Positions 11,869 to 48,167 are shown, counted from the stretch's first letter. The stretch is 64,000 nucleotides of DNA from Kiritimatiellia bacterium (GCA_039807095.1 JBDHQM010000004.1:62425-126424), one strand, 5' to 3'. The notes: a model not told the origin generated them from the letters alone. Program-made: numbers and translations.

Positions 11869-12294
11869 TCAGTCGCTATATTCTTCATCGCGGAAGCGGC
11901 GACTCCGCCGCTCCCCTCCCTCGCGAGCCTCCGTCTTGCGCCCGCCGTCTTTTCCCCCACCGCCGGGACGCCCCATAAACTGCACGCGGTCCGCCGACAC
12001 CTTGATCTTGTTCCGGCTCTGCCCCTCCTTGTCTTTCCACTGCGAGTATTGCAGTCGGCCTTCAACGAGGATCGGCGAACCTTTCCTTAAGTATTCCCCA
12101 CACGTCTCCGCCTGTTTATCCCACGCAATCACATCCACGAAGCACGCGTTCTCCTCGCCCTTCCCGTCTTTTCCTCCGTACCCGTCATTCACCGCCAGGC
12201 CCAGATCCGCAACCGACATTCCCTTCGATGTTTTGCGGATCACCGGATCCCGCGTCAGATTTCCCACCAGCATCACTCTGTTCATTCGTATCAT
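11869..12294 (-). CDS. ssb: Single-stranded DNA-binding protein
   Basis: OB-fold SSB (MIRMNRVMLVGNLTRDPVIRKT...VDVIAWDKQAE...ILVEGRLQYSQW), Gly-rich linker, acidic tail. The longer track ORF to 12387 overlaps the upstream KTSC gene, so the internal start at 12294 is preferred. Confidence 0.8.
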   Translation of the reverse strand: MIRMNRVMLVGNLTRDPVIRKTSKGMSVADLGLAVNDGYGGKDGKGEENACFVDVIAWDKQAETCGEYLRKGSPILVEGRLQYSQWKDKEGQSRNKIKVSADRVQFMGRPGGGGKDGGRKTEAREGGERRSRRFRDEEYSD

Positions 12295-12338
12295 GTCCGT
12301 TCTCCCTTTTTCGTTGTCGTTTCTTTTTGTGTTCTCGC

Positions 12339-12677
12339 TCATTCGCGTACCGCCCACGCAGACGGATACAGATCCAACCGCTCGCACGGATAGCTGTTGC
12401 GAATGCGGCGATTGAAATACTCGCCCTTGTTCACGATGCGCGTGAAATCCAGATACACCTCGCGATCCACGCCCGAATAGGCGTAAGCCGCCCCACTGCT
12501 GAACACGATTGTCAGCGTGCGCGACGCCGCGTCGTATCGCGCGGCATCAAATAGCCGCGATTCAATCCGGTGAAACTCCACATTCTTTCCGCGCCACGGC
12601 AGCTCGCCCGCCCAGCCCGCCGTCGCCACCATCGCCATCAGGCCCGCCACCACACTCACCATCATCGCTCGCTTCAT
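12339..12677 (-). CDS. Secreted KTSC-domain protein
   Basis: Signal peptide (MKRAMMVSVVAGLMAMVATAGWA) plus a KTSC-domain signature (YAYSGVDREVYLDF...NKGEYFNRRIRNSY). Confidence 0.6.
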   Translation of the reverse strand: MKRAMMVSVVAGLMAMVATAGWAGELPWRGKNVEFHRIESRLFDAARYDAASRTLTIVFSSGAAYAYSGVDREVYLDFTRIVNKGEYFNRRIRNSYPCERLDLYPSAWAVRE

Positions 12678-12841
12678 TTCCAGTCCTCCACATTGGGGTT
12701 TGATTCTGGAACTCTATATTCGCAAGCGCCGTGCCAAGTCGCAGAAAGGCGGATTCGCGAGATCGCAACCCGCGATTTACAAAGCACTTGCGAGATCGCC
12801 GCCGCGAACGCGCCCCTCGCAACTGACAGGGTGAAAACCAT

Positions 12842-12873
12842 CAACTGCGGTTGATGAATTTCAACCGCAGTTG
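12842..12873 (-). terminator. Perfect 13-bp inverted repeat, candidate intrinsic terminator for the sigma-54 activator transcript
   Basis: caactgcggttga-tgaatt-tcaaccgcagttg. On the minus strand the stem is followed by AUGGUUUUCACCC. Lies ~165 nt 3' of the activator stop. Confidence 0.45.
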
Positions 12874-12932
12874 CGCAGAACTGGGGACGGAGCCAACTCT
12901 ATACCGCATACCGTTGGCAGATAGAGAGGGGC

Positions 12933-12990
12933 GACTTCCAAGGATTGGAAACCGGTCGCGAACAGACTTCCAAGGGTTGGAAGTTTTTCT
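12933..12990. repeat. REP-like intergenic element copy 1: tandem pair of ACTTCCAA-N3-TTGGAA palindromes 32 bp apart
   Basis: Sites at 12936-12950 (ttccaaggattggaa) and 12968-12982 (ttccaagggttggaa), the second followed by TTTTT. The linker between sites (aaccggtcgcgaacagactt) is also conserved with the copy at 34521-34572. Confidence 0.55.
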
Positions 12991-13036
12991 CAACGCAAAA
13001 ACGGATACTCCACAGAAATGCGGAAATCGCGAGCGA

Positions 13037-14542
13037 TCAGGAGTCCGCGCGATCTGTGCTCTTTAGAAATTTATGCACGGCCTGCGGAGAAATGCCGAGT
13101 AGCCGTGCGGCGTGCGATTTATTTCCACCCGACTGTTCCAGCGCCTTCGCGATCAACGACGTCCGGATTTCGGAAAGATACGATTCGATAGAGAAGCCCG
13201 CGCCCAGTTCCGGCAGCGCACCCGCGCGCGGAGCAGCAGCAGGAAGCGGCTCAATTTGAATATCTTCCGCTTGAAGCACCGGCTTGTCGGACAGCAGCAC
13301 CGAGCGACCCAAGACGTTGGAAAGCTCGCGGATATTCCCCGGCCAGACATGCTCCTCCAATCGCTTCACCGCCGAAGCGTCCATACGGCGCGGAGTCGGC
13401 ATGGAGCGATTCAATTGCGCGAGCTGATACAGCGCCAAGAGTTTGATGTCGCTCCGTCGCGCGCGCAGCGGCGGCAGCACCAGCTGCGCATAGCCAAGCC
13501 GGAAATACAAATCTTCGCGAAACGATTTTTCCGCAACCGCCGCTCGCAAGTCGCGATGCGTTGCCGCGATCACCCGTACATTGACCGGAACCCCGCGCGC
13601 GGCACCAATCGGTTCCACCACGCCATCCTCCAACACGCGGAGCAACTTCGCCTGCAATGCCAGCGGCAGCTCCCCGATTTCATCCAGAAACAACGTGCCC
13701 CCGTCCGCCAGCACAAACTTCCCCGCCTGATCACTCGCCGCACCGGTGAACGAACCCTTGCGATGCCCAAAGAGAATGCTCTCCACCAACTGCTCCGGCA
13801 ACGCCGCGCAATTCACCGCCACAAACGGAGCGCGCCCGCGCCCGCTCATCTCGTGAATCAACGCAGCCAGCATCCCCTTCCCCGTCCCCGTTTCGCCGTG
13901 AATCAACAGCGGCACCGGATGCGGCGCAAGCCGTTCCGCCATCTCCAATACGCGCCGAAATGCGGCATCCTCACCGCGCAATCCAAGCTGCCTGCACGCG
14001 GTCATCAAATCAGGCGCGCGCAATCGCGCCGCGTCCACGCCATACGCCGCCATCGCTTCACGCGCCCGCTCTGCGGCCCGCGGCTTCTCATCCACAACCG
14101 CCAACCCCGCCCCCGCTGCGCCGCGAGCGAATTGCACCGCAACCCAGCGCACCGCCGGGGCGTCGTGCACCACGTCGCCCCACGCGGCCTGCACCGTTTC
14201 CGGCCCGCTGTTCACGCAAACCGTCAGAGACCCCACGGCAGCGCAGCGACGCAACTCGGACCCGAGCGCATCCGACAATGCCTCGCGGGAAAGCGGCGCC
14301 GAAATCCACTCGATCGCCAGCGCGGGATAGAGTCGCCGCAACTCCAGCTCCAACGCCAATGCCTGACCGGGCGTCGCCGATGTGGAAAGCAGCACCAGCC
14401 GGTCCCATTCCGCATTCGCAAGCAGCGCCAGTGTCGGCCCCAACCCGACCGACTCGCCCGTCAGGCCCGGCACATACGGATCCCACTCATCCACACATGT
14501 CAAAAGCATGTTCATGAAAACACCCGCACTCGCATCACACAT
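13037..14542 (-). CDS. Sigma-54-dependent transcriptional activator (enhancer-binding protein) with uncharacterized N-terminal sensor domain
   Basis: AAA+ sigma-54 interaction domain (GETGTGKGMLA Walker A, GSFTGA variant of the GAFTGA loop, ESILFGH), C-terminal Fis-type HTH (GNKSHAARLLGISPQAVHKFL). The ~230-aa N-terminal domain is not a receiver. The true start may be the internal MNMLLT at ~14515. Confidence 0.85.
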   Translation of the reverse strand: MCDASAGVFMNMLLTCVDEWDPYVPGLTGESVGLGPTLALLANAEWDRLVLLSTSATPGQALALELELRRLYPALAIEWISAPLSREALSDALGSELRRCAAVGSLTVCVNSGPETVQAAWGDVVHDAPAVRWVAVQFARGAAGAGLAVVDEKPRAAERAREAMAAYGVDAARLRAPDLMTACRQLGLRGEDAAFRRVLEMAERLAPHPVPLLIHGETGTGKGMLAALIHEMSGRGRAPFVAVNCAALPEQLVESILFGHRKGSFTGAASDQAGKFVLADGGTLFLDEIGELPLALQAKLLRVLEDGVVEPIGAARGVPVNVRVIAATHRDLRAAVAEKSFREDLYFRLGYAQLVLPPLRARRSDIKLLALYQLAQLNRSMPTPRRMDASAVKRLEEHVWPGNIRELSNVLGRSVLLSDKPVLQAEDIQIEPLPAAAPRAGALPELGAGFSIESYLSEIRTSLIAKALEQSGGNKSHAARLLGISPQAVHKFLKSTDRADS

Positions 14543-14742
14543 TTACCTTCTGTTTTCGAGGCATCCGGAGCGGCGTGCAAAACACCGCGCTAAATTTCTT
14601 CGCCAGCTCTCCCCGCCCCGCGCACCCGCACATTTGCGCCTGCAAAAACCGGAGGCTATCCCACCGCCCGCCATTTCTCCAACCGCAAATAAAAAGGGAC
14701 GGCCCGAGGCCGTCCCTTCCCTGCTGCCGAATTGAATATCCA

Positions 14743-16245
14743 CTATTCCTTGTGCCAGATGTCACCTTCGCCATACCGGAACCAACGCGAAGTGGTCACT
14801 TTCTGGCGCGTGTAGAACATGATGCCTTCGCGGCCCTGCAGGTGCAGGTCCCCGAAGAACGAGTAATCCCATCCGCTGAACGGGAAATAGGCCAGCGGCG
14901 CAGGCACACCGATGTTGATGCCGACCATGCCCGATTTGATTCGGTGCCGGAACTCACGCGCAGCTTTGCCCGATTGCGTATAAATGCACGCACCGTTTCC
15001 GAAGATGGTCTTGTTCGACATTTCGATTGCGGCCTCGAGGTCGTCGAAGCGCATCACGTTCAACACCGGCCCGAACACCTCGTCCTTTGCAATCGTCATG
15101 CCCTCGCGAACGTGATCCACCACAGTCGGGCCGAGATAAAAACCTTTCGGAAATTCCGGAATCTTCACCGTGCGCCCGTCCACGACGACCTTGGCTCCGT
15201 CCTTGACGCTGCTCTCCACCAGCCCCGCGACCTTGTCGCGATGCTGCTGACTGATCACCGCGCCCATCTTCGCCGACGGGTCGCGATCCGTCGGGCCCAC
15301 CTTGATCGCACGAACAGCCTCCGCAAGCGGCGGCAACAGATGATCGCCCGCCTTGCCGATTGCCACCGCCGTGGAACCGGCCATACAGCGCTGCCCGGCG
15401 CAGCCGAACGCGGCATCCACCAACCCTTTCACAGAGTTGTCGAAATCCGCATCGGGCATGACGAAGACGTAATTCTTCGCGCCACCCGCCGCCTGAACAC
15501 GTTTCCCGTTTTGTGTGCCCTTTTCGAAAATATACTTCGCAATCGGCGAGGAGCCGACAAACGAAATCGCGCGAATCTTCGGATGCGTCAGAATCGCGTC
15601 CACGCACTCCTTGCCGCCATGCACAACGTTCAACACGCCCTTCGGCAATCCGGCCTCATGCAACAACTCAATCAGACGCACGCCGGTCAGCGGGACCTTC
15701 TCGCTCGGCTTGAGGATGAACGTATTGCCGCAGATCAGCGCGAGCGGATACATCCACATCGGCACCAGCGCAGGAAAGTTGTAAGGACAAATGCCCGCGC
15801 AAATGCCGACGGGTTGCTTGATCACATCGCAGTCAATGCCGCGCGCGATATTTTCCAGCACCTCACCTTTCAGCAGCTCGGGCGCCGAACAGGCGTACTC
15901 GACAACCTCCATGCCGCGCAACACATCGCCTCGCGCCTCGACAATCGTTTTGCCGTGCTCGCGCGTAATCATCTGCGCAAGCTCTTCAAAATGTTTATCA
16001 ATCAGCGCCTTGTAGCGGAACATTACGCGAGCGCGTTCGATCGGCGGAGTCTCCGCCCAATCATACGCGGCGGCTTCGCAGGCTTGAACAGCTTGATCCA
16101 CAACGTCCGCGCCGCACATGGGCGTTTGCGCGATCACGTCGCCGGTGGACGGATTGTAGACCGGCGTGTGCGCGGCGGTTTTCGGAACGAACCACTCCCC
16201 ATTAATGCAAACGGGAACCGGCGTCAGGGCAGACTGCGTACTCAT
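14743..16245 (-). CDS. mmsA: CoA-acylating methylmalonate/malonate-semialdehyde dehydrogenase
   Basis: Aldehyde dehydrogenase superfamily with MmsA-type sequence throughout (catalytic Cys region FGCAGQRCMA). Start taken at MSTQSALTPVPVCINGEW (16245) rather than the track's upstream extension. Confidence 0.85.
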   Translation of the reverse strand: MSTQSALTPVPVCINGEWFVPKTAAHTPVYNPSTGDVIAQTPMCGADVVDQAVQACEAAAYDWAETPPIERARVMFRYKALIDKHFEELAQMITREHGKTIVEARGDVLRGMEVVEYACSAPELLKGEVLENIARGIDCDVIKQPVGICAGICPYNFPALVPMWMYPLALICGNTFILKPSEKVPLTGVRLIELLHEAGLPKGVLNVVHGGKECVDAILTHPKIRAISFVGSSPIAKYIFEKGTQNGKRVQAAGGAKNYVFVMPDADFDNSVKGLVDAAFGCAGQRCMAGSTAVAIGKAGDHLLPPLAEAVRAIKVGPTDRDPSAKMGAVISQQHRDKVAGLVESSVKDGAKVVVDGRTVKIPEFPKGFYLGPTVVDHVREGMTIAKDEVFGPVLNVMRFDDLEAAIEMSNKTIFGNGACIYTQSGKAAREFRHRIKSGMVGINIGVPAPLAYFPFSGWDYSFFGDLHLQGREGIMFYTRQKVTTSRWFRYGEGDIWHKE

Positions 16246-16289
16246 GATATTAATACCCTCTTTCCTAATCTTCTTTTCGCTAAAGCCAA

Positions 16290-17603
16290 TTACGGATGCG
16301 CGGGGATCGGCTTCATCTTCCCTGCAGCTAAACCTTCTTGATACTGCTTCCAGCTCATGTGCTTCTTCCCGGTCGGCACATCCTCCATGATGATGCAATC
16401 ATCCACCGGGCAGACCAGCGCACACAGATTGCAACCGACGCAGACGTCCTCCAGAATTTTCGGAATCATCTTGCCCGGCAGGCGGCCCGGCCCGAGGTCG
16501 TGGCCATCCGGCTTGATCAGCGCGATGGCCTGATGCGCACCATCTTCGCAGGCGATGTAGCACAAGTTGCAGTTGATGCACTTGTCATAGTCAATCGTCG
16601 CGACACGTTTGTAGTTGAGATTCAAATTCTCCCACTTGGTGACCTTGTTCACCGCCAACCCGCGCAACTCGTTGACCGACTTCATCCCCTTGCTGTCGAG
16701 GAATTCGCTCAACCCGTCCTTCATCTCCTCTACGATGCGGAAGCCGTAGTGCATGATCGCCGTGCAGACCTGCACCCCCGTCGCGCCGAGCGCGATGAAA
16801 TCGGCCGCGTCTTTCCAATTCGACACACCGCCGATACCGGAAATCGGCAGACCCGCACACTGTGGATCCGACGCAATTTCGTGCAGCATATTCAGCGCAA
16901 TCGGCTTCACCGCAGGCCCGCAATATCCGCCGTGTGTGCTCATTCCGCCCACATACGGCTCGGGGCACATCGTCTCCATATTGACCTGCGTGATGCTGTT
17001 GATGGTATTGATCAAGGACACCGCATTGGCGCCCGCCCGCTTCGCGGCGCGCGCTGGCGGCACCACGCTCGTGACATTCGGCGTGAGCTTCACGATCACC
17101 GGAATCTCCGCGACCTCCATAACCCAACCGACGATCGTCTCGATAACTTCCGGGTTCTGCCCGACAGCGGACCCCATCCCGCGCTCGCACATGCCGTGCG
17201 GACAGCCAAAGTTCAATTCGACACCATCCGCACCCGCGTCCACGGCACGCTTCATGAAGTCGTGCCAGTTCTCGCGCGTATCCGTCATCAGCGAGGCGAT
17301 AATCGCGTGGTTCGGCCACGCCTTTTTGCACTCTTTGATCTCGCGGAAGTTCGTCTCCGGTGCGCGGTCGCTGATCAGCTCAATGTTGTTGAGTCCCGCC
17401 ATGCGCATCTGACCGAGGTTCAGCGCGGAATAGCGTGAACTGACGTTGACGATCGGCGTGCCGATGGTCTTCCAGACGAACCCGCCCCACCCCGCAGCAA
17501 ACGCGTTGTGGCACTGATAGGCGGTGTTCGCGGGCGGCGCGGACGCGACCCAGAAAGGATTCGGCGATTTGATTCCGGCAAGATTGATGGAAAGGTCTGC
17601 CAT
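16290..17603 (-). CDS. preA: NAD-dependent dihydropyrimidine dehydrogenase subunit PreA (DHOD-like FMN domain plus 2x[4Fe-4S] ferredoxin domain)
   Basis: TIM-barrel DHOD/DPD family followed by C-terminal CxxCxxCxxxCP ferredoxin motifs (CINCNLCYIACEDG, CVGCNLCALVCP). Confidence 0.85.
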   Translation of the reverse strand: MADLSINLAGIKSPNPFWVASAPPANTAYQCHNAFAAGWGGFVWKTIGTPIVNVSSRYSALNLGQMRMAGLNNIELISDRAPETNFREIKECKKAWPNHAIIASLMTDTRENWHDFMKRAVDAGADGVELNFGCPHGMCERGMGSAVGQNPEVIETIVGWVMEVAEIPVIVKLTPNVTSVVPPARAAKRAGANAVSLINTINSITQVNMETMCPEPYVGGMSTHGGYCGPAVKPIALNMLHEIASDPQCAGLPISGIGGVSNWKDAADFIALGATGVQVCTAIMHYGFRIVEEMKDGLSEFLDSKGMKSVNELRGLAVNKVTKWENLNLNYKRVATIDYDKCINCNLCYIACEDGAHQAIALIKPDGHDLGPGRLPGKMIPKILEDVCVGCNLCALVCPVDDCIIMEDVPTGKKHMSWKQYQEGLAAGKMKPIPAHP

Positions 17604-17639
17604 GATTGTTCTCCTTACGTAGCGTTCTTCGAATCCCGA

Positions 17640-19097
17640 TTATTTCTGTTTTGCGTAATACTCTTCTTCAAGCTCCGGCGCGCGCACCGGATTGTCCAAC
17701 CCCGATCCATACGGCTGCTTCATCCCATAGCGCGTCTTCTGAATCGGTCCGATCGCCGTCTCGCCCGTGAGCCACTTGTGAATCCCGCGCGCGGCTTTCC
17801 GCGCCTCGCCCACGGCGTTCACCACTTCGCGACCGCCATTGGCACAATCGCCAGCAGTGAAGACGTGCTTGAGGTTCGTCTGTCCCGTGACTTCGTTGCG
17901 CGCGACGGTCCCGTCCTTGTTGAGCTTCAACTTCGGAAAGAGGCGCTTCAACAGGTCGCTGCGCGGCGCCTGGGTCAACGCCTTGATCACCATGCCGAAC
18001 GGCTCGAAGAATTCAGACCCGGGAATGATCTCCGCCTTGCCCTGATCGTTCACCTTCGTGCGCACAAGCTTGAGCCCTTCAACATGCCCATTCTTTTCAA
18101 CGACTTCGACGGGGAGCACGTTGAACATGAATTCGGCGCCGTCCACTTTCGCGCTGTCGTATTCGTGCGGATAGGCGGGCATATCCTGCTCGCGCCGACG
18201 ATACACAATGATCGCTTCTTCCGCGCCGAGTCGCTTGGCCTGCGCTACCGCGTCAATCGCGGTATTGCCGCAACCGACAACCGCCACGCGCTTCGCCAGC
18301 TTCACCTTGTGCAGCGGCTCAACGTGCAGCTCGCGAATGAAATCCAACGCCTCGACGACTTCCGGCAAATCCTCGCCCGGAATGTTCAGCCGCAAGGCAT
18401 TGCTGCTGAGACCCACACCGATGAAGATGGCATCGAACTTTTTCTCAATGTCGGCGATCTTGACGGTTTTGCCCACTTCCACGCCGGTGCGAATCTTCAC
18501 GCCGAGTTTTTTGATCATCTCGACTTCCGCAATGCTGACGTCCGGGCGCATTTTGTAGTACGCGATGCCGTACGTGTTGAGGCCGCCCGCTTCTTTGTCT
18601 TTTTCAAAGATCGTCACGTCGTAGCCGAGCTGAGCCAGCTCTGCCGCGCAACCTAGCCCGGCAGGTCCGCCGCCAATCACGGCGACCGACTTGCCGTTCT
18701 TCTTTTTCGGCGCGTGCAACACCTGAATGTCGTTCTCAAAAACGTGGTCCGTCGCATAGCGCTGGAGCCGTCCGATCTGCAGCGGCTTCTCATCGCGATC
18801 CAACATCACGCACGCGCCTTCGCAGAGCACTTCCACGGGGCACACGCGCGCACACGATGCGCCAAGCGGGTTCGATTCGAGAATCACGCGCGCGGACGAG
18901 GTGAGGTTCTTTTCCGCAATCTTCTTGATGAAGCTCGGAATATCAATGCCCGTCGGACACGCGGCAATACACGGAGCATCGAAGCAGTAAAGACAACGCT
19001 CCGCTTCGACAAGCGCCTCCTGCGGCCGGAACTTCGGCTTCTTTTCATCCATGTTCACCGCGGCCTGCTTCGCTGTAAGAAATGATTTCAACGGCAT
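17640..19097 (-). CDS. preT: Dihydropyrimidine dehydrogenase subunit PreT (glutamate-synthase small-subunit-like FAD/NAD(P) oxidoreductase)
   Basis: N-terminal Fe-S cluster cysteines (CLYCFDAPCIAACP), GltD-like Rossmann motifs (VAVIGGGPAGL, VAVVGCGNTAID). Immediately 5' of preA. Confidence 0.85.
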   Translation of the reverse strand: MPLKSFLTAKQAAVNMDEKKPKFRPQEALVEAERCLYCFDAPCIAACPTGIDIPSFIKKIAEKNLTSSARVILESNPLGASCARVCPVEVLCEGACVMLDRDEKPLQIGRLQRYATDHVFENDIQVLHAPKKKNGKSVAVIGGGPAGLGCAAELAQLGYDVTIFEKDKEAGGLNTYGIAYYKMRPDVSIAEVEMIKKLGVKIRTGVEVGKTVKIADIEKKFDAIFIGVGLSSNALRLNIPGEDLPEVVEALDFIRELHVEPLHKVKLAKRVAVVGCGNTAIDAVAQAKRLGAEEAIIVYRRREQDMPAYPHEYDSAKVDGAEFMFNVLPVEVVEKNGHVEGLKLVRTKVNDQGKAEIIPGSEFFEPFGMVIKALTQAPRSDLLKRLFPKLKLNKDGTVARNEVTGQTNLKHVFTAGDCANGGREVVNAVGEARKAARGIHKWLTGETAIGPIQKTRYGMKQPYGSGLDNPVRAPELEEEYYAKQK

Positions 19098-19189
19098 GAT
19101 GTCACCCTAGGTTTGCTGAGGAAGTGGAGTGGACGTGTACCGGTTGGCGGCCGGATCGAGAGTGTGAGTTTCTATTCATCGCGTTCTCC

Positions 19190-20287
19190 TCATTTATACT
19201 CAGTAAAAGTCAATCCGTGCGCATCCGCCACGGCTTTATAGGTCAGATGCCCTGCGTGGGTGTTCAGCCCCGGACGCAACTCCGCCACCTGCTGCAACGC
19301 CTTTTCCAAACCGAGATTTGCCAGTTTGAGCGCATACGGCAGCGTCGCGTTCGTCAACGCCTGTGTCGCCGTCCGGCAATACGCGCCGGGCATGTTCGCC
19401 ACGCAGTAGTGCAGAATATCCTCTTCGAAGAAGATCGGGTTTTCGTGCGTCGTCGCGCGCGATGTTTCAAAGCAGCCGCCCTGATCAATCGCGATATCCA
19501 CAAGCACGGAACTCTTCTTCATCAACTTAAGCATGTCGCGGCGAAGCAGCTTCGGAGCCTTGGCGCCGGGCACCAGCACTGCGCCAATCAAGAGGTCCGT
19601 GTCCGGCAGCAGCTCCAGCAGGTTGTGCTCATTCGATTGCACCATGCGCACGGAGCCACCGAGCGTCAGATCAAGGAACCGCATCCGTTCAATGTCGAGT
19701 TCCAGAATCGTTACCGTCGCGCCCAGGCCAACCGCCATGCGCGCGGCATTCACGCCCGATGCGCCGCCGCCGAGAATCACTACATTCCCCGGCATCACGC
19801 CCGGCACGCCACCCAGCAACACGCCGGATCCGCCCTGCGCCTTGCTCAGATAGAATGCGCCGACAATGGTGCTCATCCGCCCTGCGATCTCGCTCATGGG
19901 CTCGAGAAGCGGAAGGCGACGCCCCACCTGCACGGTTTCATACGCGACGGAATCCGTCTTGGACGCCATTAGACGCTCCGTGAGCTTTCGATCCGCCGCG
20001 AGATGCAGATAGGTGAACAGCAGCAAGCCGGGCCGGAGGAATTGATACTCCGGCTCGATCGGTTCCTTCACCTTGAGCACCATATCGCCCGACCACGCAT
20101 CCGCCGCCGTCGGCACAATCGTCGCGCCCGCATCGCGATACTGCTCATCGCTGAATCCGCTGCCCACGCCAGCGCTCTGCTGCACCAGCACGGTGTGCCC
20201 CGCAGAGACCAGCGCGCGCACCACGGCGGGAGTCCCCGCGACGCGGTTTTCTTTAACCTTAATTTCCTTCGGAATGCCGACTTTCAT
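19190..20287 (-). CDS. ald: Alanine dehydrogenase
   Basis: [26 protein letters not shown]... matches AlaDH/PNT N- and C-domains; Rossmann [10 protein letters not shown]. Confidence 0.85.
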
Positions 20288-20320
20288 AAAAGGCTCCGCT
20301 CCGTTTGGTTTCGAGTTGCC

Positions 20321-21670
20321 TCAAATCTCCGAAATGGCGATGTCCAGCACCTCGAGCAGGAAGTCAATGTCCGCCTCCGTCACACACATCGGCGGCGTGA
20401 TGCGGATGATGTTGCCGTGCAAGCCGCCCTTGCCAATCAATGCGCCCAACTCGCGCGCGCGCTCGAAAACCTGCGTGCAGGCCGCCTTGTTCGGCTCCTT
20501 CGTCGCGCGATCCGTCACGAACTCAAGCGCAACCAGCAGACCCGCGCCGCGCACCTCGCCGAGCACCTGATACTTCTGATGCAGCTTCTGGAGGCCCGCG
20601 AGGAAGCGATCGCCCAACACGCGGCTCCGCTCCATCATATTCTCGTTATCAATCACCTCGAGCACCGCCTTGCCGATCGCGCACGAGACCGGATTACCGC
20701 CGTAGGTGTTGAAGTGAATGCGCTGCGTGAGCGACTTGGCTATCTCCGGCGTCGTGACGACCGCCGCGAGCGGAGCGCCGTTGCCGATGCTCTTCGCCAT
20801 CGTCACAATGTCGGGAATGACCCCTTGCGACTCGAAGCCCCAGTAGTGGCGACCCGTGCGACCGAACCCGGCCTGCACCTCGTCGGCGATGCACACGCCG
20901 CCGTGCTCGCGCACCACGCGATAGGCTTCCTTCAGGTATCCATCGGGGAATACCACCACACCCCCGACGCCCTGGATCGACTCGGCGAAGAAGCCGGCGA
21001 TCTTTCCGGGCGTCGCGTTAATTATTAGATCCTTCACATCTGCCGCGTATTTCTTGCCCGCGTCCGGATCGTTGTGGCCCCACGGCCCGCGATACGGATA
21101 CGGCGCAATCGCGTGATGCACGCCGAACGAGTGCGGCACATTGAACTTCCACGTGCTGTGCGCCGTGAGCCCCATCACCGACGCCACGCCGCCGTGATAG
21201 CAGTTGCGCAGCGCGACGAGGTCATAGTTGCCGGTGTGAATGCGTGCCATCAGGATCGCGAGGTCATTCGCCTCGGAACCGGAGTTCACAAAATAAACGC
21301 ACTTCAAATTGCCCGGCATCTTCGAGGTCAGCTTCTCCGCATACTCGCAGATCGCACTGTTCAGATAGATCGTCGTCGTGTGCGAAATCTTGTTGATCTG
21401 ATCAATCGCCGCCTTGTTCACGTGCGGATGGCAGTGCCCCACCCCCACCGTTACAATGCCGCCGAACGCATCGAGATAGCGGCGGCCGGTGTCGTCATAG
21501 ACATACTGCATCTTGCCTTCGACGATCATCAGCGGCTTGTTGTAGTACAGAAACAGCGCCGGATTCAGATACTGCTTTCGCAGCGCCAGCGTCTTCTCAT
21601 ACGACAGCCCGGTGTACGGCGCAGGGGTGTGCGAAAACGCGGGCAAAACAGGTGCTTTCTTCGAACTCAT
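20321..21670 (-). CDS. Class-III (omega) aminotransferase, AGXT2-like beta-alanine/beta-aminoisobutyrate:pyruvate transaminase
   Basis: PLP fold type I class III; AGXT2-like signature [14 protein letters not shown]; the PLP-lysine region is conserved. Confidence 0.8.
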
Positions 21671-21738
21671 CTTCTTACTCCTCTACAACGCGCGGGTGTG
21701 TTTGACGAATATGCCGCACACTCTGTGCTCATGATTCG

Positions 21739-23235
21739 CTACCGCCCTCCCGCATTCACAACCTGGGGCCGGTATCCCTTCATCAGGAAATAGTACAACG
21801 CGAACGCAATGAAAAATCCGACGAACCACGCGTAGTGGTAAACACCCGTCCAGAATTCGGCAGCCGGAACCGCCACCCCCAGTGTCACGAGAAAGCCCGG
21901 CACGTTCGGCGCAATCGCCAGCACCAGCGCCACGAGCGCGCGGATGTTATAGCCGTTGGCGTAGGAGTACTCGCCGCGCGGATCATACAGCGCGCGCAGA
22001 TTCATCGTCCGCTTGCGAATCGCAAAATAGTCGCAGATCAAAATGCCGCCAATCGGCCCGAGGAGCGAAGAGTAGCCCAGCAACCACGTGAAGATGTAAC
22101 CACTCGGATCCGCCGCCAGTTTCCACGGCATCATCAAAATGCCGATGATCCCCGTAATCACGCCGCCTGCGCGCATGCTGATCGCGCGCGGAAGAAAGTT
22201 CGAGAACGCGGTCGCGGGCGCAACCACGTTCGCCGCCAGGTTCGTCGTCAGCGTTGCCAGCGACAACGCAAACATCGAGAACAGGATGATCCAGAAACTG
22301 TCGAAACGCGAAAGCAGTTCGACCGGATCCCAAATCGCCTCGCCGAAAATCACCGCCACGCCGATAAAGGCATAGAACGGCATCGTTGTGTTCAACCCGA
22401 GGAACTGCCCCCACAACTGCGCGCGCTGACTCTTCGCCTCGCGCGTGAAGTCGGGAATGTTCAGCGACAGCGTCGCCCAGAACGCCACCATCGAGGTCAA
22501 CCCCGGAATGAAAATCTTCCAGAACTCCGCCGTCGTTTTGTATTTCCCCGGCTGCGACAACATCGGCCCGAATCCATCTGCTTTGTTATACGCCCAGATG
22601 AGGAACATCAGCCCGATCCCAATCAACAGCGGCGCGCCCCAGTTCTCAATGAAGCGGATGGACTCCATCCCCCGCCAGAAAATCGCGATATTGATGAACC
22701 AGAAAACCAGGAAGGACAAAAACTGCGCCGTGTTAACCTGAATGTGCTCGTTACTGATGAACCCCCACACGGCAGTGTTCGCCAGTTCCGGCCACTTCAA
22801 TAACAGCAGCTTGTATATCGCCTCTCCGCCAATCCACGACTGGATGCCGAACCAGCCGCACGCCACAATACCGCGCAACACCGACGCGATATGTGTTCCC
22901 GCAGTTCCAAACGGCGCGCGCGCAAACACCGGGAATGTGATGCCATATTTGCAGCCCGCATGCCCGTTCAGCACAATCGGGATTAACACGATCAGATTGC
23001 CGAGCGAGACCGTCAGAATCGCCTGCCACCAGTTCATCCCCGCATGGATCAACCCGCTCGCGAGCATATACGTCGGAATGCACACCGACATGCCCACCCA
23101 GAGATTCGCGATATCTTTTGTGCCCCAGCGGCGCTTGCTAGATGGAATCGGCGCCAGATCGCCGTTGTAGAGGGGACTCGCTTCAACATACGCCAAATCT
23201 TGAGGATTCAGATCGGATTGAAGCGGGTCGGCCAT
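21739..23235 (-). CDS. NCS1-family nucleobase:cation symporter (cytosine/uracil/hydantoin permease type)
   Basis: 12-TM NCS1 signature (IPSSKRRWGTKDIANLWVGMSVCIPTYMLASGL). Start taken at MADPLQ (23235), an internal ATG of the track ORF. Confidence 0.8.
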   Translation of the reverse strand: MADPLQSDLNPQDLAYVEASPLYNGDLAPIPSSKRRWGTKDIANLWVGMSVCIPTYMLASGLIHAGMNWWQAILTVSLGNLIVLIPIVLNGHAGCKYGITFPVFARAPFGTAGTHIASVLRGIVACGWFGIQSWIGGEAIYKLLLLKWPELANTAVWGFISNEHIQVNTAQFLSFLVFWFINIAIFWRGMESIRFIENWGAPLLIGIGLMFLIWAYNKADGFGPMLSQPGKYKTTAEFWKIFIPGLTSMVAFWATLSLNIPDFTREAKSQRAQLWGQFLGLNTTMPFYAFIGVAVIFGEAIWDPVELLSRFDSFWIILFSMFALSLATLTTNLAANVVAPATAFSNFLPRAISMRAGGVITGIIGILMMPWKLAADPSGYIFTWLLGYSSLLGPIGGILICDYFAIRKRTMNLRALYDPRGEYSYANGYNIRALVALVLAIAPNVPGFLVTLGVAVPAAEFWTGVYHYAWFVGFFIAFALYYFLMKGYRPQVVNAGGR

Positions 23236-23430
23236 ATTCCTATCCCCGATATGAATCCCGGCGCCGCATCGCGCACTTCGCACGCGAGCAACACTTCTGA
23301 CGGCTCTCTCGACGCATTGTCACCTGATAAGTTTGCGCGCCAACGAAACAACCGTCAACACAAAAGGTAGGGGAAAACCTGATGCACAATTAATTGCCGA
23401 CCCATTCAGTCCGAAACGCAAAACAGAGGC

Positions 23431-23520
23431 GGGCTTGTCCGCCGGAGGCCCTGCGTAGGCGGGCTTGTCCGCCGGAGGCCCTGCGTAGGCGGGCTTGTCC
23501 GCCGGAGGCCCTGCGTAGGC
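23431..23520. repeat. Perfect tandem direct repeat, 3 x 30 bp (gggcttgtccgccggaggccctgcgtaggc)
   Basis: Three identical head-to-tail copies read directly from the sequence, with a diverged partial fourth copy following. Lies in the intergenic leader upstream of the NCS1/pyrimidine operon. Confidence 0.9.
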
Positions 23521-23567
23521 GGACCACTCTGCTGGCGGAATTATGAACCAAACAATCTCCGGGGAGC

Positions 23568-23613
23568 GCACGCGCCCTCGCGTGCTTCGGTGCGCGCCCC
23601 CGCGCACCGAAGC
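23568..23613 (-). promoter_or_regulatory. Two adjacent GC-rich hairpins in the operon leader / methyltransferase 3' region
   Basis: Hairpin 1 gcacgcg-ccct-cgcgtgc (23568-23585). Hairpin 2 is a perfect 13-bp stem gcttcggtgcgcg-cccc-cgcgcaccgaagc (23584-23613). No U-tract on either strand, so not a classic intrinsic terminator. Confidence 0.35.
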
Positions 23614-23684
23614 GGGCAACATAGGGGCTACATTCTAACGGCCGCAATTCTATGCAAAGCGTTCTGACGATCCAGCGACCGGGT

Positions 23685-24452
23685 TTACTTTCGCCGCCAT
23701 GCAGTGCCTTCGGCAATGACGAGCTCGAACTTGCGCGCGTGTTCGCGGATCAAGAACGGGATGTCCTCCCGCTTTTCCAGCGTGAAGCCGGAATCGAGAA
23801 TCTCGTGCAAGCCTTTGAGGGTAGACACGGGACCTTCCTCGCCTTCGTATCCACCGATCCAATTTTCGCGCGGCGTATAAATCTGCCGCCACGTGCTCGG
23901 CGTCGTCAGCACGAGTGTGCCACCGGGCTTCACCAGTTCAAAAGCCCGCTCGAGAAAGCGCCGGGGCTCCATCATTCGGCAGATGAGATTCGCAGCGAAC
24001 ACCACATCGAACACGCCGATATCCGCGCGCAGTTCTGCCGCGTTTCCAACCTCAAAGGAAACGCGGGTAACGTCCACATCCTTCGGCGCCCACGCGGCAA
24101 ACGGCTGACGCAATTCGCCCTGAATCGGAAGCGCGTAGAGAAGCGTCTCTCGCGCGCGCAGGCGTTGCGCGGCATCAATAAAGATCGTCGCGCGATCAAT
24201 CCCGATCACTTCGTCGCAACGACGCGCCAACTCAAATGTGGATCGCCCTACGGAACAGCCGACGTCCAACGCGCGCGCGCCGCAATCGGGTACATCGCCA
24301 ACCAACTCGTTGACGCAGCGTTCGGAAAAGTTCAACACCATGCATCCGCCGAAGCCGTTCAACAGATGCAGCTCCTCCTCGGCCGCATAATGGAGCCAGA
24401 GATACTGCGCCAACGCATCGGAAGTTTCGTAGTATGACGCAGATTTCTGCAC
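23685..24452 (-). CDS. Class I SAM-dependent methyltransferase
   Basis: Motif I VLDVGCSVGRSTFELA; Rossmann MTase fold spacing. Substrate unknown. Confidence 0.7.
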   Translation of the reverse strand: MQKSASYYETSDALAQYLWLHYAAEEELHLLNGFGGCMVLNFSERCVNELVGDVPDCGARALDVGCSVGRSTFELARRCDEVIGIDRATIFIDAAQRLRARETLLYALPIQGELRQPFAAWAPKDVDVTRVSFEVGNAAELRADIGVFDVVFAANLICRMMEPRRFLERAFELVKPGGTLVLTTPSTWRQIYTPRENWIGGYEGEEGPVSTLKGLHEILDSGFTLEKREDIPFLIREHARKFELVIAEGTAWRRK

Positions 24453-24458
24453 TACCCG

Positions 24459-25604
24459 TTATCCTTGAACCGCGCGCAAGAGGCCGAGTGAATACTCGCT
24501 GGGCATATAGTCTTTCGCGACGACGATCGTTTTGCCGTGTCGGTGCAGACGGATCTCGCAATTCGTCACCTCCGGCGTCTTGTGCGGCGCGAAGAGAATG
24601 TCATCGTGCGTGGCGTGGCTGGCATCGGCGAACTTGTCGGGCGTCAGCCCGCCGCCGAGGTGATCGCTCCGCCCCGTGGCGATATGAAACGTGCCCAACA
24701 CCTTCTCGTCCTGAATATCGCGACCGGACACCGGCAACACTTGGGTTCCCAGGCCGAGTTCGCCGATTTCGCCCGTCGCGGGATCGGCCTTAATCTTTGC
24801 CAGATGATGCTTCACCGTTTCTTCGTTTCCACTAATCAACACCGCATCCACAACCCGTCCGCCCTTCACCGTCATGAGGGCGAGCGTTCCGTCTTCTTCA
24901 TATTTAAGAGGGAACTGACCTTCCGCACCCGTCGGAACCCAGTACACCTCGCCGGCAGGCAGGTTCGCTACATCCGGCGTCGTGCCGCGACAAAGACCGT
25001 GGCTCTTCTGAGCCTCCTGCCCGCCCAACAGCAGTTTTAATGTATACGTTTTACCCGCAACCGTAAAGTCGAGCTCTGCCCAGTCTGCGCCCGTCATGCC
25101 CGCGCGCAAGGCCTCCGCATCGCGGCTCACTTCGTTGTAGTCCACTGCTAGGCCGGTTCGCAGAATGATGTCGTTCATTCCGTGCATCGTCGCGCCACGG
25201 AATCCGTACTTCTTCGCAAACGCCGTCAGCGGCGCCGTCGCCGAATACGTCGTGATAGCGAGAATCAAGTCGTACTTCGCATACACATCGCGATCGAGGC
25301 TGATCGCTTTGCCCGCCGCGTCATACGCGAGGTCCGGCAGATCGAGATTGCTCCCGCCGGTGATCTTGTAGGCGTACATCTCGCCGCCCTTGAGATTCAA
25401 AATGCCCGCTTGAAGTCCTTTGTAAATCACTTCGTAGGCGTGGCGCTGAATCGTGTAATTCGCGTTCGCGAGGAAGCGGTAGTCCTGCATATCTTTCGGA
25501 TCTTCCAAATCAATCAAAACCGCAACGCGTTCGCCTCCGGCGGGCTCGAAAACAGTCTTCAACAAACGGGCGAGGTCGAACGGCGGGAATTTTCGGTCAG
25601 TCAT
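24459..25604 (-). CDS. Hypothetical protein, possibly M29 (aminopeptidase T/S)-like metallohydrolase
   Basis: ~381 aa from MTDRKFPPFDLARLL (the track ORF extends to 26069 but overlaps the MATE gene). An ordered set of potential metal ligands (GEIGELGLG ... FHIATGRSDH ... HATHDDILF) resembles M29 family spacing. Assignment is tentative. Confidence 0.4.
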   Translation of the reverse strand: MTDRKFPPFDLARLLKTVFEPAGGERVAVLIDLEDPKDMQDYRFLANANYTIQRHAYEVIYKGLQAGILNLKGGEMYAYKITGGSNLDLPDLAYDAAGKAISLDRDVYAKYDLILAITTYSATAPLTAFAKKYGFRGATMHGMNDIILRTGLAVDYNEVSRDAEALRAGMTGADWAELDFTVAGKTYTLKLLLGGQEAQKSHGLCRGTTPDVANLPAGEVYWVPTGAEGQFPLKYEEDGTLALMTVKGGRVVDAVLISGNEETVKHHLAKIKADPATGEIGELGLGTQVLPVSGRDIQDEKVLGTFHIATGRSDHLGGGLTPDKFADASHATHDDILFAPHKTPEVTNCEIRLHRHGKTIVVAKDYMPSEYSLGLLRAVQG

Positions 25605-25675
25605 TTCTGCACTCCTTCTGATTCCATTTTGTACGCAGGGCGAGCGATGACCTTGCAAAAAACTATTCCGAAATT

Positions 25676-27016
25676 TTAAGACGCGTCCAATTTGCGCAGC
25701 GCGCGACGCCCCCACCCGAGCGTGAAGAGCGCCGCCGACCACGTCACCAGCCCGATGCCGATCCATAATCCCATCGGCCCGAAGTGCGCCGTCAGCAGTG
25801 GATACAGCGCCAGCGGCGCCGCAATCTGGCGATACAGCCCGATCCACAACGCGTACATCGGCTGCTGGATCGCCTGCAACAGCGAGGTGGTGATGAACAG
25901 AAACACGTATGCGTACAACACAAACACCGTCACGTGTAAATACCCCACCGCAATCCCGACAACCTGCGGATCGCTCGCGAACAAACCGACCGCCGGCCGC
26001 GCAAACGCAAACATCAGCGCCCCGCCAATCAGCATCACCACCAGCCCTTCGCGCAATCCCGCGCGCCACACGTCTCGCACGCGATCCACGCGGCCCGCGC
26101 CCAGACTCTGGCCCGCAATCGCAAGCGTGGCAGATGTCAATCCCAGCACCGGCAGCAGCACGACCTGCTCAATTCGCGTCGCCACGCCATACGCCGCAAC
26201 AGCAGCATCGCCAAAACGACTCGCAAAATACGTGATCGTGAAAATACCGACGCCAATGGTGACGTGATTCAGCGCCGCAGGCGCGCCTTGCCCAAAGATG
26301 CGCCGGAACGGCTCCGCGCGCGGGCGCAGCAATCCCCACGTCTCCACTGTGAACAATCCCGCGCGGCGCGCGCGCAGGATCATGTAGCACACCCCGCCCG
26401 CCTGAATCATGATTGTCGAAAGCGCCACGCCCGCCAACCCCATCGCCGGCACGCCGAACCCGCCGAACATGAACCACGGATCCAACCCCGCATTGAGCAG
26501 CGCGCCCACCGCCAGCATATTCCGCAGCGTGTGCGTATCTCCGCGCGCCACCAACCCCGCATTGACCGCATAACTGCCGACGAAAAATATCGTTCCGATG
26601 AAAATGATCCGGACGTACTGAATCGCGCTCTCCAGATACTCGCCGCTCGCGCCGAGCAACACAAACAGCGGACGCATGAACACCAGCCCCAACACCATCA
26701 GGAGCAGTCCGGCAATGATGCCGAACGAAAGCGACTGTGCGGCGAGCAATCGCGCGCGCGGCAGATCGCCGCGTCCCAGCGCGTAGGCAATCAGCGCCGT
26801 CGTCCCCGCGCTCAATCCCGCGCCGATCGCGATGATGCTGAAGAAGACCGGAAACGACGCGGAGAGCCCCGCAAGCGCGGCGGTGGACAGTTTGCCCGCG
26901 AAAAACGTGTCCGTCAGATTATAGAGTGTATTGCAAAAAATCCCGATCGCAGCGGGCATCGCCAACTGCCGCAGCAGCGGACGCACCGGTCCCGTTGTGA
27001 GATCATACGTCTGCAT
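25676..27016 (-). CDS. MATE-family multidrug/toxin efflux transporter
   Basis: 12-TM protein with a MATE (NorM/DinF) N-terminal signature (GPVRPLLRQLAMPAAIGIFCNTLYNLTDTFFAGKL). Confidence 0.85.
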   Translation of the reverse strand: MQTYDLTTGPVRPLLRQLAMPAAIGIFCNTLYNLTDTFFAGKLSTAALAGLSASFPVFFSIIAIGAGLSAGTTALIAYALGRGDLPRARLLAAQSLSFGIIAGLLLMVLGLVFMRPLFVLLGASGEYLESAIQYVRIIFIGTIFFVGSYAVNAGLVARGDTHTLRNMLAVGALLNAGLDPWFMFGGFGVPAMGLAGVALSTIMIQAGGVCYMILRARRAGLFTVETWGLLRPRAEPFRRIFGQGAPAALNHVTIGVGIFTITYFASRFGDAAVAAYGVATRIEQVVLLPVLGLTSATLAIAGQSLGAGRVDRVRDVWRAGLREGLVVMLIGGALMFAFARPAVGLFASDPQVVGIAVGYLHVTVFVLYAYVFLFITTSLLQAIQQPMYALWIGLYRQIAAPLALYPLLTAHFGPMGLWIGIGLVTWSAALFTLGWGRRALRKLDAS

Positions 27017-27104
27017 CTGGAGTCCGTCCGGCGCCGCGCGCCGGTCCTATAGAGACGAAAACGCGCGGGCGATCGTTCAATCGCCCGCGCGCTCGAAGCA
27101 ACCG

Positions 27105-28526
27105 TTAGTCCATCCACTCGGTGTGGAAGAACTGCCCGCGCGGCTTGTCCACACGCTCATACGTGTGCGCGCCGAAGAAATCGCGCTGCGCCTGCAGAAG
27201 ATTCGCCGGCAACACTTCCGAGCGGTAGCTGTCGTAATACGCCAGCGCCGCGCTGAAGCACGGAACCGGAATTCCCAGCTTCGCCGCCTGCTGAATCACG
27301 CGGCGCAAGCTGCCCTGCCCGCGGACAACGATCTTCTTAAAGGTCGGGTCCAGAAGCAGATTCGCCGGCGCTTTGCGGCGGCTGAACGCGTCGCGGATTT
27401 GCGAAAGAAACGCCGCGCGAATGATGCATCCGCCGCGCCACAACATCGCGAGCTGGCCGAGGTTCAACTTCCAGCCGTACGTCTCCGATGCAGTCTTGAG
27501 CAAGGCGAAGCCCTGCGCATACGAGCAAATCTTCGACACAAACAGCGCCTGCCGGATGGACTCGATGAACTTCGCGCGATCGCCTTTGTATGCGCTCTTC
27601 GGACCGCGCAGCTTTTTCGACGCCGCCACGCGCTCTTCCTTGTGCGCCGCCATGATTCGCGCGAACACCGACTCGGTGATCAGCGTCACCGGCACGCCCA
27701 AGTCCAGCGCGATGCTGCTTGTCCACTTGCCCGTGCCCTTCTGGCCCGCCGCGTCCAGAATCACATCCACCAGCGGCTTGCCCGTCTCCGGATCCGTCCG
27801 CGTGAACACCTTGGCGGTGATTTCGATCAGATACGAATCCAGCTCGCCCTTGTTCCAAATCGAGAAGATGTCGTGCAGCTCCTGCGCCGTCATGCCGAGC
27901 CCGCGCTTCAACAGGTCGTACGCCTCGCAGATGAGCTGCATATCGCCGTATTCGATGCCGTTGTGCACCATCTTGACGAAGTGCCCCGCGCCGTCCGAGC
28001 CCACCCAATCGCAGCACGGCTCGCCATTCACCTTCGCCGCGATCGCCTGAAAGATCGGCTTCACGTGCGGCCACGCCGCAGGCGAGCCGCCCGGCATAAT
28101 GCTCGGGCCGCGCAACGCGCCTTCTTCGCCGCCCGAAACGCCCGTGCCCATGTAGAGCAACCCGCGCGACTCCACCTGCTTCACGCGGCGCTGCGTGTCT
28201 TCAAACCACGAATTGCCGCCATCAATAATAATGTCGCCCGGCTCCAGCAGCGGAACCAACTGTTCGATAAGCTGATCCACCGCAGCACCCGCCTTCACCA
28301 TCATCATCACGCGGCGCGGCCGCTTCAGCGACGCCACAAGTTCCTGCAGCGAGTGCGCCCCCACAATCGTCTTGCCCGCCGCGCGGGTCTGCAAAAAGTC
28401 GTCCACCTTCGACACCGTCCGGTTGAACACCGCCACGGTGAACCCGTTGTTGGCCATATTAAGGACGAGGTTCTCCCCCATCACCGCCAATCCGATTAAA
28501 CCGATGTCTGCCTGCGTCGCACTCAT
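27105..28526 (-). CDS. gnd: 6-phosphogluconate dehydrogenase (decarboxylating)
   Basis: MSATQADIGLIGLAVMGENLVLNMANNGF... is canonical Gnd. Start at 28526; the track's upstream extension is not supported. Confidence 0.9.
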   Translation of the reverse strand: MSATQADIGLIGLAVMGENLVLNMANNGFTVAVFNRTVSKVDDFLQTRAAGKTIVGAHSLQELVASLKRPRRVMMMVKAGAAVDQLIEQLVPLLEPGDIIIDGGNSWFEDTQRRVKQVESRGLLYMGTGVSGGEEGALRGPSIMPGGSPAAWPHVKPIFQAIAAKVNGEPCCDWVGSDGAGHFVKMVHNGIEYGDMQLICEAYDLLKRGLGMTAQELHDIFSIWNKGELDSYLIEITAKVFTRTDPETGKPLVDVILDAAGQKGTGKWTSSIALDLGVPVTLITESVFARIMAAHKEERVAASKKLRGPKSAYKGDRAKFIESIRQALFVSKICSYAQGFALLKTASETYGWKLNLGQLAMLWRGGCIIRAAFLSQIRDAFSRRKAPANLLLDPTFKKIVVRGQGSLRRVIQQAAKLGIPVPCFSAALAYYDSYRSEVLPANLLQAQRDFFGAHTYERVDKPRGQFFHTEWMD

Positions 28527-41636: not shown

Positions 41637-41750
41637 CGCCAATCTCGGTTTTCTACAAAACTGCTTCCAGGCCTGACGCGGCATAAATCGCTTCCCGACG
41701 CACACACCTCTAGCAGCCGCTAAAACCACTGCCAACAGTCGTCAGCCTCA

Positions 41751-42728: not shown

Positions 42729-42756
42729 CTGGCTTTTCCCTCTGTCCTCCGCTCAC

Positions 42757-43740: not shown

Positions 43741-43831
43741 GGTCCCTCTCCAGCCATTTGCTGTGACTTATTTCGTTTGTTCATTGGTCGTTCTGTTTTG
43801 GGGGAGATTCAATGACAGCCGGTCAAACATC

Positions 43832-44821: not shown

Positions 44822-44825
44822 TGAT

Positions 44826-44996: not shown

Positions 44997-45010
44997 CTAC
45001 CGGCGAAGGA

Positions 45011-46069: not shown

Positions 46070-46093
46070 GCTCCGATCTGTTCCGTCGTCACA

Positions 46094-48138: not shown

Positions 48139-48167
48139 AACGAACGACTAACGGGAGCAGAGACACG

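Follow-up and report, generated by a model that had tools for sequence, protein, structure and literature searches.

A six-gene Kiritimatiellia operon that probably belongs to a split pathway of reductive pyrimidine catabolism

Introduction

Thymine and uracil are catabolised in mammals by DPYD, DPYS, UPB1, AGXT2 and ALDH6A1; in Pseudomonas, the upper pathway (pydXA-dht-pydC) and β-alanine catabolism (bauABCD) are encoded at separate loci. This study concerns a 64,000-nucleotide stretch of DNA from a Kiritimatiellia bacterium (GCA_039807095.1, JBDHQM010000004.1:62425-126424; hereafter the window, with positions counted from its first letter) and, within it, six minus-strand genes at positions 14743-23235 which encode an NCS1 permease, an AGXT2-like aminotransferase, alanine dehydrogenase, the dihydropyrimidine dehydrogenase subunits PreT and PreA, and the semialdehyde dehydrogenase MmsA. 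These genes are likely to serve reductive catabolism of the pyrimidines uracil and thymine, in a pathway split between loci, and a canonical dihydropyrimidinase is found at a second locus both in the closest relative and in the same sequenced sample. The operon is another case of a known, extended reductive pyrimidine pathway in the form of an ordinary split gene cluster; its AGXT2-type aminotransferase, its alanine dehydrogenase and its linkage to the methylcitrate cycle are typical of the lineage.

A Pyd pathway that includes an aminotransferase and a malonic-semialdehyde dehydrogenase has already been described for Bacillales, where the clusters comprise PydA1/PydA2, PydB, PydC, the aminotransferase PydD, and PydE or MSDH (Yin et al., 2019; Zhu et al., 2020; both as cited in PMC7332683). 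As in Bacillales, the window encodes a two-subunit NAD(P)H dihydropyrimidine dehydrogenase, and a presumed β-alanine aminotransferase is clustered with a CoA-acylating malonic-semialdehyde dehydrogenase, a set that would lead from uracil to acetyl-CoA. Unlike in Bacillales, the aminotransferase is AGXT2-like, alanine dehydrogenase is added, the PydB of the window's lineage is encoded apart from the operon, beside PrpB and PrpC, PydC is unlinked, and the host is an uncultured bacterium of the Planctomycetes-Verrucomicrobia-Chlamydiae (PVC) group that is represented by MAGs (metagenome-assembled genomes) only. Zhu and colleagues are said, in their abstract, to report that the B. megaterium enzyme is also a β-alanine:pyruvate aminotransferase.

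With the mammalian route the locus shares the enzyme families at steps 1, 4 and 5, most notably the succession of an AGXT2-type aminotransferase, presumably dependent on pyruvate, and a methylmalonate-semialdehyde dehydrogenase of the CoA-acylating kind. Here, however, PreT and PreA are separate subunits of the first enzyme, an NCS1 permease and alanine dehydrogenase are encoded in the same bacterial operon, and propionyl-CoA would be handled by methylcitrate-cycle genes beside the dihydropyrimidinase. The use of at least two loci, of a pyruvate-dependent β-alanine transaminase and of an MmsA-type dehydrogenase resembles Pseudomonas, from which the window differs in the aminotransferase subfamily and in joining the first step with the last steps while the middle steps are encoded elsewhere. 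PreT and PreA have the two-subunit architecture of E. coli PreT/PreA (YeiT/YeiA), and the window PreA passes the NCBIfam PreA equivalog model; unlike the orphan NADH dihydropyrimidine dehydrogenase of E. coli, however, the pair sits inside a catabolic operon and its lineage encodes a dihydropyrimidinase.

Gene content and organisation of the operon

Pfam and NCBIfam searches bore out the gene content, order, strand and coordinates (Table 1) that had been given in a preliminary description of the window. Its title, which spoke of the lower half of pyrimidine catabolism, was imprecise, since the operon holds step 1 (PreTA) together with steps 4-5. Alanine dehydrogenase, PreA, MmsA and NCS1 each pass curated NCBIfam cut-offs. 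The six co-oriented genes are separated by gaps of only 33-92 nt and therefore most likely form a single operon. The open reading frames (ORFs) of the aminotransferase, PreA and MmsA are exact matches to recorded gene calls; for MmsA (500 aa), the recorded call and a tblastn alignment agree on the start at 16245. At the other end, the tblastn alignment to the NCS1 of a related locus (L060) begins at 23235, and the ATG at this position is preceded by GGGGATAGGAAT.

Table 1. Coordinates of the operon and of the features upstream of it in the window.
Feature	Coordinates	Strand	Evidence and remarks
NCS1-family nucleobase:cation symporter	21739..23235	minus	PF02133 1e-111; TIGR00800 367.6 bits vs cut-off 353; first gene of the operon
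AGXT2-like class-III (pyridoxal phosphate, PLP) aminotransferase	20321..21670	minus	PF00202 1e-92
NAD-dependent L-alanine dehydrogenase	19190..20287	minus	TIGR00518 equivalog 511.1 bits vs cut-off 391.85
PreT / PydA1	17640..19097	minus	PF14691 (dihydropyrimidine dehydrogenase (DPD) domain II, Fer4_20) 5.7e-37; PF07992 (Pyr_redox_2) 5.7e-27
PreA / PydA2	16290..17603	minus	NF006183 equivalog 641.6 bits vs cut-off 335
CoA-acylating malonate/methylmalonate-semialdehyde dehydrogenase MmsA/MSDH	14743..16245	minus	TIGR01722 638.4 bits vs cut-off 448.5; last gene of the operon
Operon leader/intergenic region	23236..23684	minus	30-bp x 3.2 tandem repeat at 23427-23522
Methyltransferase	23685..24452	minus	OvoA C-terminal model TIGR04345, 197 bits vs cut-off 170
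M29-fold protein, 381 aa	24459..25604	minus	exact recorded gene call

Judged by their sequences, PreT is predicted to be the dihydropyrimidine dehydrogenase subunit that carries 2x[4Fe-4S] and binds FAD and NAD(P)H, and PreA the catalytic subunit, with FMN and 2x[4Fe-4S]. NCS1 is presumed, from gene context, to import uracil and thymine, the aminotransferase is presumed to be a β-alanine/β-aminoisobutyrate:pyruvate transaminase, and alanine dehydrogenase presumably regenerates pyruvate and releases NH3. Among solved structures, the aminotransferase is closest to that of human ethanolamine-phosphate phospho-lyase, AGXT2L1 (6tor; E 5e-104, 352 bits), with GabT-type and omega-transaminases far below at ~170-200 bits, so that the label AGXT2-like is a fair one. 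The window accordingly holds a dihydropyrimidine dehydrogenase, split into PreT and PreA, and beside it in the same operon an aminotransferase and a malonic-semialdehyde dehydrogenase of the predicted specificities, as a Pyd cluster does.

Related clusters in other genomes

A search of genome contigs with the single PreA protein yielded one real relative and 58 matches to ferredoxin domains. This relative (L001, JAMLJG010000008.1), a Kiritimatiellia metagenome-assembled genome (MAG), is the only full-length one among the reference genomes, and its PreA is 96% identical to that of the window; homologues that share 75-82% of their residues with it are encoded in MAGs of Kiritimatiellia, Lentisphaerae and Verrucomicrobia, which places the window PreA at 75-96% identity to the PreA proteins of these groups. 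Metagenome contigs were searched with an alignment of the aminotransferase, and all loci were scored with a tblastn panel. Of the loci whose length lets adjacent genes be seen, many have the aminotransferase orthologue (63-97% identity) inside a Pyd cluster, alanine dehydrogenase adjoins the aminotransferase in all Kiritimatiellia-type loci, and PreT is immediately upstream of PreA in every related locus.

In the relatives, the order NCS1-aminotransferase-alanine dehydrogenase-PreT-PreA-MmsA is followed by a 460-aa amidohydrolase, which scores 532-556 bits against the dihydropyrimidinase equivalog TIGR02033 (cut-off 393), and then by PrpB (methylisocitrate lyase), PrpC (2-methylcitrate synthase) and usually PrpD. 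Aminotransferase, PreA and MmsA occur together in 28 loci, and in 22 of these a dihydropyrimidinase accompanies them. It is missing from the window, L068, L001, L062, L063 and L086; of these six, L068 is a 100% DNA copy of the window, L062 and L063 carry the same protein on two contigs, and the L086 contig ends at MmsA. Complete Pyd clusters in more distant bacteria regularly include this aminotransferase subfamily, and more than 15 distant loci also have the M20 amidase in the cluster, for example in the order M20-NCS1-aminotransferase-PreT-PreA-MmsA-dihydropyrimidinase (L074/L075) or as M20 next to PreT-PreA-MmsA-dihydropyrimidinase-NCS1-aminotransferase (L108, L129, L137). The chemistry that had been proposed for the window fits these data, as its aminotransferase family occurs in complete Pyd clusters together with PreT, PreA, dihydropyrimidinase, M20 amidase, MmsA and NCS1.

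The core DNA of the window and L001 is 83.8% identical, and the block of homology (14741-23379) runs exactly from the stop codon of MmsA to ~145 nt upstream of NCS1; since the flanks of the two loci differ, the core has moved as a unit. In a neighbour-joining tree of concatenated aminotransferase, PreT and MmsA the window groups with L001, and the next relatives are L071, with a full cluster, and L062, with a truncated one. Strong purifying selection acts on each of the six core genes, with ratios of nonsynonymous to synonymous divergence (dN/dS) of 0.02-0.07 between the window and L001 at dS values of 0.7-1.2. As neither of these two loci has an adjacent dihydropyrimidinase, ratios this low indicate that the operon has still been functional since the split.

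The dN/dS of PreA against L071 was discarded as an artefact of an in-frame TAA in the L071 contig. The PreA gene of this locus (JABLTH010014377.1, 7180-8490) has the TAA at the codon of a conserved serine, Ser59 (TCC in the window), in a cluster that is otherwise complete. The gene may have become a pseudogene recently, or else the assembly is wrong at this point; a PreA of 437 aa without the defect (P0317) is on record for the L071 lineage. In both L001 (12883-13710) and L062 (12882-13706), which represent the other lineages with a truncated core, MmsA is followed by a convergent gene for a HIBADH-family dehydrogenase, the two proteins being 67% identical to each other, along with a methionine sulfoxide reductase. 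The window has nothing of this kind; the dehydrogenase might provide a branch in which (methyl)malonate semialdehyde is reduced.

A separate dihydropyrimidinase locus

That the window encodes neither dihydropyrimidinase nor β-ureidopropionase, as the preliminary description had claimed, proved correct: Pfam scans of the large ORFs of the whole 64-kb window found no Amidohydro_1, Peptidase_M20 or CN_hydrolase domain, and tblastn with the dihydropyrimidinase and M20 amidase proteins of a relative gave no window match at E ≤ 1e-2. The dihydropyrimidinase of the window's lineage is instead of a type (P0245/P0241) that is 78-80% identical to the L071 enzyme. For the L071 enzyme, the records contain no other dihydropyrimidinase above 86% identity, its 90% cluster has a single member, and five of its six best matches were confirmed either in full clusters after MmsA or as L071 itself. 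P0245 (78% identical) lies in another Kiritimatiellia MAG (L156, JAMLJE010000002.1), in a dihydropyrimidinase-PrpB-PrpC block that stands alone with no core nearby.

The closest MAG links this block to a core of the window's kind. The PreA of L001 matches MCO5044787.1 exactly, MCO5044784.1 is contained within the L001 aminotransferase, and the same accession run holds a dihydropyrimidinase (MCO5044922.1), PrpB (MCO5044921.1) and PrpC (MCO5044920.1), 133-135 protein accession numbers past PreA and with the core truncated as in the window. Because the accessions of aminotransferase and PreA are 3 apart, the numbers appear to follow gene order, which would put the three genes about 135 genes away from the truncated core. 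Further accession runs pair a PreA of the window's 90% cluster with a dihydropyrimidinase in the same way (MCO5061625/MCO5061177, MCO6400487/MCO6401404 and MBW7909253/MBW7908041), and MCO5069491/MCO5067761 may be a fifth such pair.

The second line of evidence comes from the sample of the window itself. P0241 (TIGR02033 530.5 bits vs cut-off 393) is encoded together with PrpB and PrpC on the Logan contig SRR19427039_19340 (L157), and the same run, SRR19427039, holds the exact window sequence as SRR19427039_6554 (L068). P0241 is 93.5-93.9% identical to the enzymes of the sister MAGs, and the window PreA is 95.4-96.1% identical to the PreA proteins of these MAGs; the GC fractions of L157 and the window are 0.592 and 0.585, and L157 and L156 are 85.8% identical in DNA. 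I infer that L157 belongs to the window's organism, whose dihydropyrimidinase (PydB) is thus represented by the closest MAG and, through this link, by the same run. It is very unlikely that L157 comes from another Kiritimatiellia strain and that the window's organism has lost the gene entirely: such an origin would agree with a link drawn by sample, divergence and composition alone, and with a tetranucleotide correlation to the window of 0.93, below the 0.98 of L001, but four accession runs of the lineage pair the truncated-core type of PreA with this type of dihydropyrimidinase, the proteins of L157 and of the window are alike in the uncommon way in which they are recorded (in both NCBI and Logan but lacking a protein accession), and the core is under purifying selection.

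The pydB gene has very probably been relocated together with prpBC and is encoded elsewhere in the same genome. Lineages that, like the window's, keep the dihydropyrimidinase-PrpB-PrpC block apart from the core are a minority. The preliminary description had offered two explanations for the missing hydrolases, genes encoded elsewhere or non-orthologous replacement, and had allowed that the cluster might merely be split. The first is the one favoured for the dihydropyrimidinase, which both the closest MAG and the window's own run encode at a second locus, and this bears out half of what the description itself had named as its refutation, a cluster that is merely split; replacement was not upheld. 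More generally, the absence of a pathway step from a 64-kb window is weak evidence of non-orthologous replacement, as here the gene block had moved.

The same findings bear on whether the pathway is interrupted, with PreTA serving as a uracil-reducing electron sink, the role put forward for E. coli, while the aminotransferase, alanine dehydrogenase and MmsA catabolise imported β-amino acids. E. coli PreTA does occur without PydB or PydC (PMC7332683), the window has neither hydrolase, and a carbamoylase was not located. An interrupted pathway is nevertheless very unlikely, because the six genes retain the order and spacing of complete clusters and are, as a block, under strong purifying selection, because the first of them encodes a nucleobase-type NCS1 permease and no amino-acid carrier, and because a dihydropyrimidinase occurs in the sister MAG genome and in the same sequencing run. 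The genome of an orphan PreTA would have no PydB or PydC, and it is this same dihydropyrimidinase that sets the present pair apart.

The carbamoylase step

Several points weigh against a split but complete pathway, and most of them concern the step after ring opening or the connection between the two loci. The β-ureidopropionase of the window's lineage was not located in the window, L001, L156 and L157. No M20-type or nitrilase-type gene lies within 10 kb of the ~12 Kiritimatiellia-type loci examined, except in L060, where the core is preceded by a divergent M20 amidase of the hydantoinase/carbamoylase family (TIGR01879 290.8 bits vs cut-off 204); by the same token, an unlinked pydC is typical of the Kiritimatiellia-type group and no peculiarity of the window. 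The assignment of L157 is based on a shared run, matching divergence and matching GC content, not on a shared contig or bin, and the placement of both loci of the closest MAG in the same genome relies on consecutive NCBI protein accession numbers. No promoter or regulator shared by the operon and the dihydropyrimidinase locus was identified, and co-regulation of the two can only be presumed. Lastly, the pathway roles proposed for these proteins are predictions drawn from comparison with known families.

Hydrolysis of N-carbamoyl-β-amino acids in most Kiritimatiellia-type clusters by an enzyme unrelated to the M20-type and nitrilase-type β-ureidopropionases is unlikely. A 309-aa isochorismatase-like protein (L156, 8954-9883) was considered as a carbamoylase and rejected, as its match to PF00857 is weak (E 4e-4) and it is found neither in L157 nor in any other fetched locus. 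As an observation in its own right, this protein is encoded directly upstream of the stand-alone dihydropyrimidinase in L156, and its superfamily includes carbamoyl-amidohydrolases.

Proposed pathway

In the split pathway favoured here, NCS1 would import uracil or thymine, and PreT/PreA would reduce the base to the 5,6-dihydropyrimidine with NADH. The ring would then be opened by the canonical dihydropyrimidinase of the second locus with prpB and prpC, and a carbamoylase, probably of the M20 type as in relatives, would give β-alanine or β-aminoisobutyrate together with NH3 and CO2. Back in the operon, the AGXT2-like aminotransferase would transfer the amino group to pyruvate, which alanine dehydrogenase would regenerate with release of a second NH3 and formation of NADH, while MmsA would form acetyl-CoA from malonate semialdehyde or propionyl-CoA from its methylmalonate counterpart, with propionyl-CoA feeding the methylcitrate cycle. 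The methylcitrate-cycle genes that follow the core in relatives fit propionyl-CoA arising from thymine.

These findings extend the version of the pathway that leads from uracil and thymine to acetyl- and propionyl-CoA to uncultured Kiritimatiellia and other PVC bacteria, with the AGXT2-type aminotransferase and alanine dehydrogenase as a built-in deaminating pair. By stoichiometry, the route should bring a net gain of NADH and yield acetyl-CoA, and nucleobases could therefore be a fermentable source of carbon, nitrogen and energy for these polysaccharide degraders.

The adjacent M29-fold and methyltransferase genes

Upstream of the operon, and 7 nt apart from each other, lie the genes of an M29-fold protein and a methyltransferase, which the preliminary description had named as the nearest unexplained genes when it raised a replacement of the missing hydrolases. 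The M29-fold ORF scores 19.8 bits against PF02073, below the gathering cut-off of 27, and has no sequence match in PDB at E ≤ 1; most of its full-length relatives have no Pfam match, and the family is small (768 representatives at E ≤ 1e-3). The fold was recognised by structure, with an AlphaFold model of pLDDT 96.6 and Foldseek matches to PepS (4icr; E 1.7e-11, TM 0.55), AmpS (1zjc; E 1.4e-10) and CgnE, so that the protein is probably a metallohydrolase. The metal-ligand pattern of M29 enzymes is Glu, Glu, His, His-x-Asp; in the family alignment, E219, E282, H307, H333 and D335 are invariant or nearly so and are candidates for these ligands.

A role of this probable hydrolase and the methyltransferase in place of dihydropyrimidinase and β-ureidopropionase would suit the missing carbamoylase of the lineage and the distance of the M29-like gene from the core, which is less than 8 kb in both the window and L001. 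Such a replacement is nonetheless extremely unlikely. None is needed for ring opening, as the canonical dihydropyrimidinase exists in the closest MAG and the same sample; in L001 the MatE-M29-like block flanks the core at its opposite end, and no further core locus has the M29-like gene, not even L062/L063, where an adjacent dihydropyrimidinase is likewise lacking. Relatives of the M29-like protein are fused to an S-adenosylmethionine (SAM) methyltransferase (P0334) or an FGE-sulfatase domain (P0474), which, together with the match of the adjoining methyltransferase to the OvoA C-terminal model, points to a different chemistry. Given its opposite position in L001 and its absence from the other core loci, the M29-like/methyltransferase pair is a separate unit; it is unrelated to pyrimidines and provides no stand-ins for the ring-opening enzymes. 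The unit is possibly tied to thiohistidine-type chemistry: the fusion partners, a methyltransferase and an FGE-sulfatase domain, correspond to the remaining two kinds of domain in OvoA, the ovothiol synthase, and there may be an undescribed thiohistidine-related system here.

Upstream region and other features of the window

No promoter of the operon was identified in the leader region, and a scan of 12300-27200 returned no Rfam elements. The tandem repeat in the leader is perfect, has a GGCGG-N6-CCGCC hairpin in each unit and a T-run after the last one, and is unique in the window and among all 157 fetched loci; the homology block shared with L001 stops just short of it. The hairpins and the T-run probably terminate the transcript of the upstream methyltransferase.

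A sigma-54 enhancer-binding protein encoded downstream of the operon (14542..13037) was considered as its regulator and rejected, as there is no -24/-12 motif upstream of NCS1; nor does this protein lie beside the core in any relative. It belongs to a minus-strand stretch (11869-14542) in which its gene comes before a near-consensus -24/-12 promoter, TGGCACGGCGCTTGCG (12736..12721). This promoter, the only good motif of its kind, is placed before genes for a KTSC-domain protein and SSB; the N-terminal domain of the enhancer-binding protein is uncharacterised. This is an RtcR-like arrangement unrelated to the pyrimidine operon.

Elsewhere in the window, a minus-strand region at 40653-49157 has a lower GC fraction (0.52-0.55, vs ~0.59 elsewhere) and encodes seven secreted proteins, each 325-365 aa long. 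Five of them make up one group of paralogues and the other two a second, with 25-51% identity within a group; each has an apparent N-terminal signal sequence, and the lone Pfam match, in one protein, is a weak CarboxypepD_reg-like one.

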